From the IMG/VR virus record IMGVR_UViG_2740892258_000006: DNA of 16,486 bases; one strand, written 5' to 3'. A program made the position numbers and the translations under genes. The notes under the pieces are model-generated. The model did not search any database and was not told the origin of the DNA. It worked only from the letters and a program-made list of their open reading frames with translations. The DNA comes from a virus (Duplodnaviria > Heunggongvirae > Uroviricota > Caudoviricetes). Shown in pieces: positions 6,488 to 14,500 of the stretch; positions within the stretch are counted from its first letter, which is position 1; the number at the start of each line of letters is the position of its first letter.

Positions 6488-6968
6488 TTAATTATCCCCT
6501 CTAAGAACAGAGTCATCCAGATTAGCCGAATCCTTGTTGTTGGGGAATAACCAGGCCCACCTCGCCTGATGTGGCTAAAAGCAGGCACATAACAGCTAAG
6601 TATTTTCAACCAGAGAGAATCCTTAGCGTTGTGGTGAATGCGGCTCAGCGCACGCGGGTTAAGGTTGAGGCTGACAGTCGACCTTCTGTGGATACCCACC
6701 CGCCTGGTGTGCAACCTTCGCCAGGCACCGGGAGGCACCCGGCACCACAACTTTATGCTGTGTGTAGTCCTGGCGGTACCAGCATGCCCTTATTTCTGCT
6801 CAGGGTGTTAATGAAATTATCAGTAAGATTGGTGCCGACGCAGTGGCATTACCTGAAAATTTCCGCATTCATGATCTGGAAAAATTTAATTTAAATCGCT
6901 TCCGTTTCCGTGGTGCGCTTTCCACTGCCAGCATCGATGACTTTACCCGTTATTCTAAAGATCTTGCG

Positions 6969-9419: not shown

Positions 9420-9460
9420 TAATGTTGCTCCCGTGTGCAGACGGGATAATGGAGAAACGT

Positions 9461-9667
9461 ATGCTGAACCTCGATTGTGTTCCTATCTCAACTTATTGCA
9501 AAGAAACTGGCGAAACTCCTGAAGCAATAAACAAACGTGTACAGCGCGGTGTTTGGCGTGAAGGTGTTCAGGTTTTAAAGGTTGAAGGCGTTAAGGAGAG
9601 GTGGATTGATCTTAGTGAGGTTGCAAAATGGGCCAGACAAAACTGCTCAAACTACCGCGCGGCGTAA
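9461..9667 (+). CDS. xis: Excisionase-like protein (Xis)
   Basis: Small basic protein directly upstream of and overlapping int; start at ATG 9461 (GGAG 6 nt upstream) within ORF 9422..9667. Confidence 0.6.
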   Translation: MLNLDCVPISTYCKETGETPEAINKRVQRGVWREGVQVLKVEGVKERWIDLSEVAKWARQNCSNYRAA

Positions 9668-10800
9668 CAATCAGGAAACACCACCAGGGAGAAACGATCA
9701 ATATAACTTTCACCTACAAAGGAGTTAGATGTCGTGAGCCGCTTTCCAATCTGGAAGTAACACCAAAGAACATTAAATACGCCGAGCGTACACTCGGCGA
9801 AATCCATAATAAGATCGAAAGGGGAACATTCATTTATGCAGAATATTTTCCCCGTTCTGCTCGTTTGAAAATTTTTGGTAATGCTGCTGCAAGCAAAACG
9901 GTAAAGATGTACCTGGACGAATATCTTGAAATCTGCGAAACAAGAAAACTTTCACCCTCTACGATTGGTGGCTATAAAAAATGCCGTAGTGCGTTAGCCT
10001 CACTTCACATTTGCCCTGCAAGTGAATTAACACCAGCAACCCTGAAAGCGTGGATTCAAAGCCAGAAAACAACCTTAAAAACCATTCGCAACCAGTTATC
10101 TTTCCTACGGTCAGCACTTGATGAAGCCGTGACCGATGGGGTACTTCAAATTAACCCCGTATCGTTAGTAACAGCTTCGCGCTACCAAAGTGATAAGTCA
10201 GAAGCAGAAAGCAGCTATGTGGTTGATCCGCTATCACCAGCAGAAGTTGATGCATTACTAGCAGCAGCCGGAAACAAACAATGGGAAAATCTGTTCCGGT
10301 TCGCCATACATACAGGCCTGCGTAGTTCTGAATTATGTGCCCTACGATGGCATGATATCGACTTTGTTGGAAAAACAGCCCATGTTCAGAGCGCAAGTGT
10401 TGTCGGAGTTATCAAAGGAACAAAGACAAAAGCCGGTACCCGTAAAGTTGAACTGACTGAAGAAGCAATGTTGGCGTTGATAAACCAGAAGCCATTTACA
10501 TTCATGAAGGATGCTACTGTCTTTGAAGATCCAAAGACCAATAAACCCTGGGCAAGTGCTGATGCAATTAGGAAAAAAGCATGGGTGCCAACATTGCGAA
10601 AAGCAGGTATTCGTTACAGAAACCCATATCAAACCAGGCATACATTCGCCACCAGCCATATCAGCCGGGGAGCAAACCTGTTTTGGCTTGCGGCTCAAAT
10701 GGGCCATAAAGGGCCTGAAATGTTATTCAGGCACTATGGACAATACTTGAAAGAGTATGATGGGAGGGCAAGTATCAAGGATAAAAAGGCTTTATTTTAA
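9628..10800 (+). CDS. int: Tyrosine site-specific integrase (lambda-type with N-terminal arm-binding domain)
   Basis: 390 aa; catalytic-domain signatures HTGLRSSELCALRW (Arg), RHTFATSH (His-x-x-Arg), GHKGPEMLFRHYGQY (His...Tyr). Confidence 0.9.
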   Translation: MGQTKLLKLPRGVTIRKHHQGETINITFTYKGVRCREPLSNLEVTPKNIKYAERTLGEIHNKIERGTFIYAEYFPRSARLKIFGNAAASKTVKMYLDEYLEICETRKLSPSTIGGYKKCRSALASLHICPASELTPATLKAWIQSQKTTLKTIRNQLSFLRSALDEAVTDGVLQINPVSLVTASRYQSDKSEAESSYVVDPLSPAEVDALLAAAGNKQWENLFRFAIHTGLRSSELCALRWHDIDFVGKTAHVQSASVVGVIKGTKTKAGTRKVELTEEAMLALINQKPFTFMKDATVFEDPKTNKPWASADAIRKKAWVPTLRKAGIRYRNPYQTRHTFATSHISRGANLFWLAAQMGHKGPEMLFRHYGQYLKEYDGRASIKDKKALF

Positions 10801-11409
10801 GTCATTATGCCAATCGTCTACTGTTTGAAACCAAATTTTTAACCTTTGCATAAAGGTACGATCCTTTTTGGGAGGGTGGTACCTTTGAAAAGAAGTATGT
10901 AACGCTTCGATAACTCCCATACAAGCATCAATTACTTCTTGTGCTTTAACCGGGCGATCGGCATCTGAAAGCTTGTGAGCGACCTCACAATCCAGAGTTG
11001 CTTTCTCTAGTACAGATGAGAACACCTCGTCAGGTATATACAGTCCTCTGCTTTCCAAAATGCAAATCAGTTTGGAAACTTGTTGAGCTTTAGCCAAGAT
11101 AGTTAACAAGTATGAAACAGAAGCCTTTGTTCTATCCTTTTGCAACCTTAACAATCGATGCTTTGATGCTCTAATTTTAGGTTGAGTTGTCTGACTGAGC
11201 CAATAGTTAGAAGAAATATCAGAAATTTCAATAACTAACTTTGAAATAGCATCAATAATTGATTTCGATTCAGAACGTGTCGCCAGTTTTACAGAATTAT
11301 TGTACGCAACTCGCCATCCAATGAAAACTAAGCAGACGCTAACTACTGTGATACACCACGAATACTGTCCTATTTGTGCTACTAATGACATTGGTTCCGT
11401 ACTGATCAA
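10792..11409 (-). CDS. Cargo operon gene C: membrane-anchored protein (one N-terminal TM helix, helical soluble domain), unknown function
   Basis: TTG start at 11409 with AAGAGG overlapping upstream stop (alternative ATG 11391); TM segment YSWCITVVSVCLVFIGWRVAY; 3' end overlaps int by 9 nt. Confidence 0.6.
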   Translation of the reverse strand: MISTEPMSLVAQIGQYSWCITVVSVCLVFIGWRVAYNNSVKLATRSESKSIIDAISKLVIEISDISSNYWLSQTTQPKIRASKHRLLRLQKDRTKASVSYLLTILAKAQQVSKLICILESRGLYIPDEVFSSVLEKATLDCEVAHKLSDADRPVKAQEVIDACMGVIEALHTSFQRYHPPKKDRTFMQRLKIWFQTVDDWHNDLK

Positions 11410-11419
11410 CTATCGCCTC

Positions 11420-11746
11420 TTATACTCTTTCTGGTTGTGCTAAATCAATAAATTTATCAATCTGTTCTTTGTAGAACGGAACATCACTTTTTATAATCAA
11501 ACGTGCTTTAACGTTGGCTTTAGGTATCCCTTCCTTACGGATGAGACCTCCAAACGCCTCTTCTAAGAAAGAGGAACCAACACCCAGTGCTATACCGCGA
11601 AAATCAACCACAATCTCCTGTTCAGTACCCTTCAGCGCAGGCACCAAAAACTCTCTACGAAATCTTTCCGCACTGTGTGGGCTATCCGTTGTGTAACGTC
11701 CGAAAGGTGTTCTGGAGAACTCCTTCGCTATGACGATATTTCTCAT
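11420..11746 (-). CDS. Cargo operon gene B: small STAS-like protein (DUF4325-like, tentative)
   Basis: 108 aa; AGGAG 8 nt upstream of ATG 11746; motif EIVVDFRGIALGVGSSFLEEAFGGLI resembles STAS-like DUF4325 as I recall it; 4-nt gap to gene A. Confidence 0.6.
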   Translation of the reverse strand: MRNIVIAKEFSRTPFGRYTTDSPHSAERFRREFLVPALKGTEQEIVVDFRGIALGVGSSFLEEAFGGLIRKEGIPKANVKARLIIKSDVPFYKEQIDKFIDLAQPERV

Positions 11747-11750
11747 AAAA

Positions 11751-12662
11751 TCATCTCCTGGGAACCAGCGACCATTGTAGTAAAGTACCCGGTATGTACT
11801 CAGCTAGCTTCTCACATCGAGGACTACTGTCATTAGAATTATAGCTATAACGAGCCCTTCCTGTTAGTATCAGAAGTGTCTCATTATCCTCACAACCTGC
11901 CCCAATAGGTCTCTTGATATCTTCAGAGCCATTTCCCCGTCCGGAACCAACAAAGCGGGATTCCCCTACTAACATAGCTCTTTCCACAGAAGATACTTCG
12001 TTTTGAATGCTATGACCATCACCATTAGGCACGAAACTTCTATAAATCCCCAATCCAAGGTCACAAACGATAAAAACGACTTTATTTTCATCACGATTGA
12101 ACCAAGCGCACTGCCACCATCGTTTACCTTTGAGAAGCTGAATATCTGACTCGAACCCCTCATCTTCATACGCATGATGAGAAACATTGAGCAAAGCTTC
12201 ACTAATCGCTGTCAGCAGTAAGCCTAACTGTTCATTATTAAGCAGAGCACTTTTCTGCAGCATGAGTACTGTTTCAACAATATGCTCGTAAGGTTCGACA
12301 GCTGACTGAAAGTATCGTTCCTCCCTCGTAAGTGCATTCAGTTTCTCTTCTGTGCCAGCAAGCAAAGCACGAGCAAGTCCAGTACCAACGATCCATCTAT
12401 GCCCAGATGGGTTATCATCCTTTTTAGGCCATTTAAAACGTATAAAATTAGGGTCCCGGGTTAAAAATTGAGCTCTATTTACTATGGCAAAGAACAGTAC
12501 CGATGCCGCAGCTGAGGCAAATTTTACCTTGGACAAATCAACTATAACTCGACCTTTATTTTTTACTCCAATCGATTCAATCGAGTTGATGAAGTTCAAT
12601 GTCCCAGCCCTAGAATCATCTGAGTAAATGCAAAATTTGCTTGGGGGTACCAGTATGGTCAT
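11751..12662 (-). CDS. Cargo operon gene A: GHKL (histidine-kinase-like) ATPase with unassigned N-terminal domain
   Basis: 303 aa; Bergerat-fold motifs in the C-terminal half: N-box EALLNVSHHA, G1 CDLGLGI, G2 GSGRGNG. Confidence 0.65.
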   Translation of the reverse strand: MTILVPPSKFCIYSDDSRAGTLNFINSIESIGVKNKGRVIVDLSKVKFASAAASVLFFAIVNRAQFLTRDPNFIRFKWPKKDDNPSGHRWIVGTGLARALLAGTEEKLNALTREERYFQSAVEPYEHIVETVLMLQKSALLNNEQLGLLLTAISEALLNVSHHAYEDEGFESDIQLLKGKRWWQCAWFNRDENKVVFIVCDLGLGIYRSFVPNGDGHSIQNEVSSVERAMLVGESRFVGSGRGNGSEDIKRPIGAGCEDNETLLILTGRARYSYNSNDSSPRCEKLAEYIPGTLLQWSLVPRR

Positions 12663-12813
12663 AGCGATGTCATTCTTATACGATGGATTTATAGATTATC
12701 TACTATTCATAGTTGGTTATGAAGACTGGGATATAACAGTAAAAGATACGTGTAAGATCCGCAAGATAGTTAATGTCGAAAAAATCATTAATTACATCAA
12801 GTTAGTGATATTT

Positions 12814-12851
12814 GGACTCGGGTTCAACTCCCGCCAGCCAATCATGATTGG
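12814..12851 (+). other. Candidate att remnant: 25-nt match to the 3' end of tmRNA/ssrA (GGACtCGGGTTCAACTCCCGCCAGC) followed by perfect palindrome CCAATCATGATTGG (12838-12851)
   Basis: Recalled E. coli ssrA 3' end is ...GGACGCGGGTTCAACTCCCGCCAGCTCCACCA; one mismatch here and divergence after CAGC. Confidence 0.55.
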
Positions 12852-12970
12852 ACGGTGTAAGGACTACACCAACAAAAACAGGAAGTTATAAGTCTCAGCA
12901 GGACACCGACCAGACGGTGAGGAGACAAAAAAGGATACGCAACGGAGTCGCGACTCCCTATGACATTAAA

Positions 12971-12993
12971 GCCCGCTGATGCGGGCTTTTTTA
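12971..12993 (+). terminator. Rho-independent terminator (gcccgc-tgat-gcgggc + T6)
   Basis: Perfect 6-bp GC stem, 4-nt loop, T-run; lies about 130 bp downstream of the ssrA-like fragment. Confidence 0.65.
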
Positions 12994-13299
12994 TTGGTCC
13001 TGACCCGCCCTGAATAGAATTCATCCAATTACAGTCCAGACATATACAGTATCCCTCAGCTCAGTATCAGCTTCTCGACAAATGGTCACTGTTATTTACC
13101 CGTTGCCAGAAAGAGAATAATTTGCCCCCATAGCCAGCCTTCCCGGAATCTGTATATTCATTAATATTGTTATCGATTCCATCAAGTAACATAGGTTGGA
13201 TGCGATTGATCTTACTCACATTAGTCGACACGGAACTCAGTAAGTTGAACTCTGAAAAAGCAGTTTAAATAGCATTTAAACAAATGCCACCAGTTCGAA

Positions 13300-14500
<1,201 letters not shown>

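Follow-up and report, generated by a model that had tools for sequence, protein, structure and literature searches.

The window (the whole 16,486-nt stretch of viral DNA analysed here) matches the chromosome of E. coli ATCC 11775 (NZ_CP033092.2) at 100% identity and contains, from left to right, an excisionase gene, an integrase gene, a three-gene operon on the opposite strand, a short stretch resembling the end of the tmRNA gene ssrA, and the host gene glaH, also called csiD (Table 1). The ssrA-like stretch GGACTCGGGTTCAACTCCCGCCAGC (12814–12838, plus strand) reproduces the 3' end of ssrA with one mismatch, as the original prediction had it; 24 of 25 positions agree, and 12818 has T for G. 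Its last base is at the same time the first base of CCAATCATGATTGG, a perfect palindrome of 14 bp; the palindrome had been placed immediately after the fragment and is indeed perfect, although it overlaps the fragment by that one base. A terminator scan located a strong terminator-like hairpin (12968–12989, with a T-run to 12995) 130 bp past 12838, at the distance predicted.

Neither the 25-mer nor the palindrome occurred in 200 shuffles of the window, and chance similarity to ssrA was ruled out on this basis. Rfam recognises only the T-arm (12819–12833, 12.9 bits) and ARAGORN reports neither a tRNA nor a tmRNA gene for the window; the stretch is therefore a gene fragment rather than a gene. 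A Leu_leader match at 12942–12992 proved to be merely the terminator.

Table 1. Features of the junction and its surroundings, with positions in the window
Feature	Position	Strand	Remarks
Excisionase (xis)	9422–9667	+	phrog_2917, E 8e-45; overlaps the start of int; xis-int order as in phages LLS and phiNP
Tyrosine integrase (int)	9628–10800	+	Pfam Arm-DNA-bind_2 and Phage_integrase; transcribed towards the junction
Cargo gene C	10792–11409	-	205 aa (199 aa annotated), N-terminal membrane helix; phrog_30059
Cargo gene B	11420–11746	-	108-aa STAS-like protein, DUF4325 (PF14213, E 6e-14); GVGSSF motif present
Cargo gene A	11751–12662	-	303 aa; N-terminal alpha/beta (STAS-like) domain and C-terminal GHKL ATPase/kinase domain
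Left arm, phage-derived	12663–12818	+	Ends in a decayed ssrA-like stretch, ~12808–12818, with T at 12818
att core common to attL, attR, attB and phage attP	12819–12837	+	Identical in attB, attL and attR
Parts of the core	12819–12822		T-stem CGGG
	12823–12829		T-loop TTCAACT
	12830–12833		T-stem CCCG, followed by CCAG
Site of the 5-nt deletion (CTCCA/TCCAC)	12837–12838	+	From alignments; most of the tmRNA acceptor 3' strand is gone from the displaced fragment
Palindrome CCAATCATGATTGG	12838–12851	+	CCA end of tmRNA joined to the 11 nt of native sequence that follow ssrA
Native ssrA 3' trailer and terminator	12852–12995	+	100% identical to the empty site
glaH (csiD)	13523–14500	+	First host gene to the right; RefSeq annotation

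The empty site and the two prophage ends

Positions 12600–13530 were used as a query against 5426 complete E. coli genomes, in 136 of which at least 80% of the query was covered. In many B2 strains (clone D i14, ST131, Nissle and others) the match starts at ~12803–12814 and extends rightwards only, with an annotated ssrA followed by glaH. The gene order at this empty site is smpB-ssrA-glaH in clone D i14 and likewise in many other B2 genomes, which supplies the comparison with prophage-free strains that the original prediction had proposed, and the ssrA end is intact in all prophage-free B2 relatives seen. When the window is aligned to the empty site of clone D i14, the sequences left of the T-arm are unrelated; from the CGGG at 12819 onwards 178 of 178 bases are identical except for one 5-nt gap (CTCCA or TCCAC), and the next stretch, as far as the start of glaH, agrees at 683 of 685 bases. 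The fragment had been described as diverging from ssrA at CTCCACCA, which is true on its face, but the departure is a clean 5-nt deletion (Δ5), beyond which the sequence runs in step with ssrA again, first with its CCA end and then with the native flank. The prophage boundary thus lies ~700 bp upstream of csiD/glaH, close to the predicted distance of about 670 bp. Occurrence of the same fragment upstream of csiD in prophage-free strains had been named beforehand as an argument against an att site; it does occur there, but as part of the empty site, and hence speaks in favour of one.

The same genome has an intact ssrA (363 nt) beside smpB. It precedes the fragment on the left by 43,124 bp (core to core) and runs in the same orientation, and only one ssrA-like core is present at each end of the 43 kb. 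An imperfect direct repeat (89.7% identity), 178 nt long at one end and 183 nt at the other, links the two; it is the counterpart at the far prophage end that was to be looked for, is far longer than the 25-mer, and results from trailer and terminator being present again behind the intact ssrA. At attL the copy has diverged, with 92% identity to the empty site (the phage-carried trailer and terminator alone being ~90% identical), while the copy at attR is that of the host. The divergent copy at attL argues that the phage carries a replacement ssrA end together with trailer and terminator, and that the host end has been displaced to the glaH side. Between the two ends lie genes for terminase, portal, capsid, sheath, tube, tape-measure, baseplate, tail-fibre, lysis and regulator proteins, as well as xis and int, a gene content from which the element looks like a complete temperate myovirus; the phage collection holds no free-phage record of this prophage. 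The excisionase, the integrase and the three-gene operon are all inside the element, left of the junction, and the operon is int-proximal as predicted.

It is an established principle of island mapping that an intact tDNA and a displaced fragment mark the ends of an island (PMC4383910). This Islander signature is matched exactly here, with a regenerated target gene at one end, a displaced 3' fragment in direct orientation at the other, a tyrosine integrase between them and an empty site in relatives. Unlike the plain signature, the repeat extends ~150 nt past the gene, through the terminator. With high confidence, then, we assign the site as the int-proximal junction (attR, read in the ssrA direction) of a 43-kb ssrA-integrated prophage of the ATCC 11775/ST95 lineage, the junction, the empty site, the repeat, and the deletion with its distribution among genomes (see below) all being observed directly. 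The proposal that the fragment is an att remnant of an ssrA-targeting element was accordingly correct. The right boundary is thereby fixed for a prophage of a major extra-intestinal pathogenic lineage, which includes UTI89, S88, IHE3034, APEC O1 and the E. coli type strain.

The palindrome, by contrast, does not mark att as had been predicted. Both it and the terminator follow the intact ssrA unchanged in empty-site strains, and the palindrome is also found at attL; the two are native ssrA flank and not att machinery. The palindrome was likewise ruled out as crossover or core, being host flank in the empty sites and missing from the CP4-57-type flank joined by the same phage arm.

The trailer has features of its own. 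Genomes of Escherichia, Citrobacter and Pseudenterobacter share a conserved ssrA 3' trailer of ~155 nt, which has also been copied into many ssrA-integrating phages. The first hairpin of this trailer, GGTGTA-AGGAC-TACACC at 12854–12870, covaries: compensatory changes occur at three of the six pairs, and 164 of 184 cells are paired, against 40–72 in shifted controls. Rfam contains no family matching this hairpin. Just after the CCA end, CCAAATAATGATTGG replaces CCAATCATGATTGG in L009 (strain C31) and in L036. These two carry unrelated left arms, which identifies the replacement as a polymorphism of the host flank and means that the palindrome is broken in some B2 strains; for the same reason CCAAATAATG of C31 was ruled out as a new lesion.

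The integrase, related phages and the crossover

The integrase shares 91% amino acid identity with that of phiNP and 86% with that of LLS, and is homologous over its full length to the integrase of Pseudomonas phage phiCTX (31% identity over 97% of the query, E 9e-41), which typifies a subfamily using a symmetric sublocation in the T-loop. Phage LLS (PQ299149), isolated on K-12, has the order xis-int-one cargo gene-attP, and in its attP an undamaged ssrA end (…GCGGGTTCAACTCCCGCCAGCTCCACCA) is accompanied by palindrome, trailer and terminator. The record of the Citrobacter phage phiNP (OR565852) ends at …GGTTCAACTCCCGCCAGCTCCACCA. Both phages resemble the window phage in the order xis-int-cargo-att and in having the ssrA 3' end in att, and LLS also in the trailer and terminator. 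They differ from it in their virion modules, in their cargo and in their intact ssrA ends, the last because these are attP or prophage-boundary copies. In the LLS record the annotated attP (L005, 2489–2508) is the 20-nt GAATTACGGGCGCGGGTTCA, which lies mostly left of the T-loop and is two positions off E. coli ssrA; the block truly in common with ssrA is GCGGGTTCAACTCCCGCCAGCTCCACCAATCATGATTGGAC.

Scanning viral contigs and genomes for the conserved trailer motif returned 68 loci. Nine att variants could be assigned to the family of this integrase (the window, L012, L030, L069, LLS, L039, L044, L047/L065 and phiNP), in which mismatches to ssrA reach to within 1–3 nt of the T-loop and then stop, TTCAAC and everything to its right being kept. 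Such a pattern is expected where a functional ssrA end, beginning at the T-loop, has to come from the phage. In addition, the window-type left arm is joined in L006 and in five complete genomes to CTCCACCAA, followed by the CP4-57-type flank that has no palindrome, and the right limit in L006 is CCAA. Together, the att variants and the L006-type junctions confine the exchange to TTCAACTCCCGCCAGCTCCACCAA, although the L006 arrangement could also be explained by later insertion of a P4-like element into the displaced fragment. As the T-arm is the sole symmetric element in TTCAACTCCCGCCAGCTCCACCAA, we infer that strand exchange takes place in or near the T-loop. A search of the reconstructed attP for arm-type integrase sites as exact 9-mer repeats gave nothing convincing.

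With the crossover so placed, the word ‘mimic’ in the original prediction no longer fits the fragment: left of the T-loop is a decayed, phage-borne ssrA-like arm, and right of it the displaced end of the host gene with its 5-nt deletion.

We propose that the arrangement arose as follows. The phage attP would carry a copy of the last ~27 nt of ssrA with ~150 nt of trailer and terminator, and the T-arm would be where the phiCTX-type tyrosine integrase recombines it with ssrA. In the lysogen the functioning ssrA (at attL, outside the window) ends in phage-supplied DNA, and the original host end, joined to the phage left arm, is displaced by 43 kb to a position beside glaH. Having lost five bases of the acceptor 3' strand, the displaced end could no longer complete a functional tmRNA, and precise excision would be expected to leave the cell with an ssrA carrying Δ5 and without trans-translation, in line with what has been published on CP4-57 and its relatives. 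For these strains it follows that the tmRNA gene in use has a phage-derived end.

The 5-nt deletion and its history

The deletion was found in 149 of the 5426 complete E. coli genomes, nearly all of ST95 type. The window left arm with a trailer-type right flank occurs in ~162 genomes, mostly on the glaH side (on the ypjA side in Ecol_545 and probably in C1), and about nine-tenths of these carry the deletion; they are of ST95 type and include UTI89, NU14, S88, IHE3034, APEC O1 and PMV-1. The same arm adjoins other right flanks in independent integrations (L006, Ecol_545, HH97 and C31). There, CTCCACCA is intact in Ecol_545 and L006, C31 is intact except for the host-flank polymorphism described above, and the HH97 junction has two substitutions, one of them at T357. 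Retention of CTCCACCA in other integrations of the same arm indicates that the phage side is not deleted, and the deletion was thus ruled out as a part of the phage attP. A crossover at the T-loop would place the deleted stretch in the host-derived part, so that the displaced host fragment, rather than the phage, would bear the lesion. Of the 11 different junctions of displaced fragments at the B2 flank, eight have lesions in or near the acceptor 3' strand, and the adjacent 150-nt trailer is almost untouched. The deletion lies to the right of the T-loop, on the side that returns to ssrA upon excision.

Lesions of this kind have precedents. The E. coli strain RS218 presumably belongs to ST95. 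For its element Eco48X the scar CGCCAGC-----CA is tabulated (Williams 2003, in Table 1 of PMC10107115), and the same 5-nt deletion is listed there for Stm27X of LT2 and OI-108 of EDL933. Eco48X and the window element have in common the species, the ssrA target, the phiCTX-type integrase class and an identical displaced-fragment scar; the name Eco48X implies 48 kb, against 43.1 kb between the cores in ATCC 11775, and no other difference can be demonstrated. From the published table, the integrase type and the lineage to which we take RS218 to belong, we strongly infer that the window element is Eco48X. The junction is therefore an ordinary prophage end at a well-known hotspot, with a scar that has already been described for this E. 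coli lineage.

The cryptic islands CP4-57 (E. coli K-12) and CP4So (Shewanella), whose excision acts as a switch that inactivates ssrA, are likewise ssrA elements with a lesion of the acceptor 3' strand in the displaced fragment. These have P4-type integrases acting at the extreme 3' end, a 1-nt deletion (T357) and an int gene next to ssrA, whereas the window element combines a phiCTX-type integrase and a probable crossover in the T-arm with a deletion of 5 nt, looks like a complete myovirus and has its int gene at the end far from ssrA. Excision of CP4-57 leaves a dead tmRNA, and ribosome rescue switches to ArfA; other mutations of the same table, when put into E. coli tmRNA, abolished tagging (PMC10107115). 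These published equivalent scars predict that curing the prophage would switch off trans-translation, which is relevant to the engineering or curing of these strains.

A separate observation concerns E. coli WB61 (L011, NZ_CP020025.1), whose sole ssrA (2211–2569, 359 nt) itself carries Δ5 (…CCCGCCAGCCAATCATG…, within 2540–2580). This gene directly adjoins ypjA, with no prophage, and its flank context differs from that of the window. Judging from its genome, WB61 is probably a natural isolate without functional tmRNA.

When the deletion arose is a further question. Δ5 is found beside an identical glaH-side flank with three different left arms: the window type, that of L012 (integrase 97% identical, different cargo) and that of L044 (integrase 67% identical, no cargo). 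The scar could on this account predate the present prophage, an ancestor having had an ssrA, or an earlier displaced fragment, without CTCCA, to the left of which the phage then integrated; the phage would either have repaired a broken ssrA or have replaced an earlier prophage, and the scar would have been inherited through the turnover. WB61 demonstrates that cells with Δ5 in their only ssrA exist in nature, and the listing of the deletion for Stm27X and OI-108 points in the same direction. However, the intact ssrA of the prophage-free B2 relatives speaks against an older scar, two prophages in tandem, the inner of which was later lost, would leave this pattern with ssrA intact throughout, and an identical deletion may have recurred, both orders of events requiring an equal number of steps. 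We consider it unlikely that the scar came before this prophage. The scar may be older and have been kept through prophage turnover, or it may be recurrent; neither history alters the identity of the site.

A more far-reaching version would make Δ5 an inherited defect of the host site, more lasting than any single prophage, such that the working end of ssrA in ST95 would always be supplied by a phage. The three left arms at the same scar and flank suggest this, as does WB61 with the deletion in its sole ssrA, and we regard it as a speculative and rather unlikely reading. If true, prophage loss would cost the cell trans-translation, and incoming ssrA phages would be selected as gene repair, amounting to an addiction to lysogeny at this locus.

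Another explanation would reverse the origin of the fragment: the whole ssrA-like stretch would be a phage-borne mimic, the crossover would lie at or beyond the palindrome, and both the deletion and the mismatch would belong to the phage attP. Taken from a single event, the differences of attR and attL from attB bound the exchange only to the interval from 12819 to the GGAC at 12864, which includes the palindrome, and lesions do cluster in the ssrA-like part with the trailer unchanged. Yet the same left arm meets an intact CTCCACCA in L006, Ecol_545 and C31, and in L006 and the five complete genomes it runs into CCAA and then a flank lacking the palindrome. Moreover, decay stops exactly at the T-loop in LLS, L030, L044, L047 and phiNP, as expected if the right side rebuilds a working ssrA. 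A phage origin of the entire stretch is consequently very improbable, and we retain the displaced host end as the preferred reading. That the fragment is instead the fossil of an older element, unrelated to a prophage on its left whose true end would be elsewhere, is scarcely credible even at so busy an integration hotspot with its tandem arrays, since phage-specific sequence is unbroken from gene A to 12818 and host sequence begins within the core, each end of the 43 kb has a single core, and the attP of the sister phages has exactly the same position relative to int.

Cargo between int and att

Within this integrase family the gap between int and att ranges from ~0.14 kb to 3 kb and constitutes a variable cargo slot (10801–12818 in the window). 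Its contents include AbiLi and AbiLii in L069, an AAA ATPase with a PD-Lambda-5_B-like methyltransferase in phiNP, a DUF4760 membrane protein in L012, and uncharacterised genes in L030, L047 and LLS (ORF31); L039 and L044 have none. In the window the slot holds the three-gene operon, for which a promoter scan placed a promoter-like site on the minus strand at 12723–12695, inside the left arm. In Salmonella and E. coli the three-gene cassette is found again next to an integrase of this kind, and in Providencia prophages it occupies a second moron site, between the lysis and terminase genes (L079, 5001–6889; L082, 5001–6919).

Searches of the three cargo proteins in PADLOC, NCBIfam and the PDB gave nothing useful, and PADLOC v2 has no model for the cassette. 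Gene A has weak matches to HATPase_c_2 and RsbW. Across 28 homologues, E155..N159, D201xGxG205 and G243xG245 are invariant, corresponding to the N, G1 and G2 motifs. Its AF2 model (pLDDT 87) shows a beta-alpha-beta fold in the N-terminal domain, and Foldseek matches the protein to the ATPase domains of GyrB, TopoVI-B, Hsp90 and CheA. Gene C has no Pfam, PADLOC, NCBIfam, PDB or PIN match, and has only 29 homologues, which are on the same contigs as those of gene A.

The nearest parallel in architecture is VapKSC/CapK-CapS, composed of a STAS-GHKL kinase, a STAS protein and a VapC toxin (Chambers et al., EMBO J 2026, PMC13373217). The cargo likewise is a three-gene operon in which a STAS-GHKL kinase-like gene comes first and a small STAS-like protein second, and it too is phage-associated, with defence systems in the sister slots. 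In contrast to VapKSC, its third gene encodes a membrane-anchored protein and not a VapC PIN nuclease, and the likeness is one of architecture. The boundary established here puts the kinase-like, STAS-like and membrane-protein genes in the slot that holds AbiL or a PD-Lambda-5-like pair in sister phages, which makes the operon a reasonable candidate for a phage-defence module.

Two minor observations concern other parts of the prophage. In its early region, a stretch overlapping yfdP (6630–6749, plus strand) matches the sRNA STnc100 in Rfam below threshold (35.6 bits, the gathering score being 47; E 1e-4). The ssrA-proximal end (L003, 17542–22860; record 1254541–1259859) also has accessory genes, encoding a DUF262 protein (630 aa) and a LEM-3-like GIY-YIG protein, together with a broken DinI-like gene, a truncated recombinase and two hypothetical genes.
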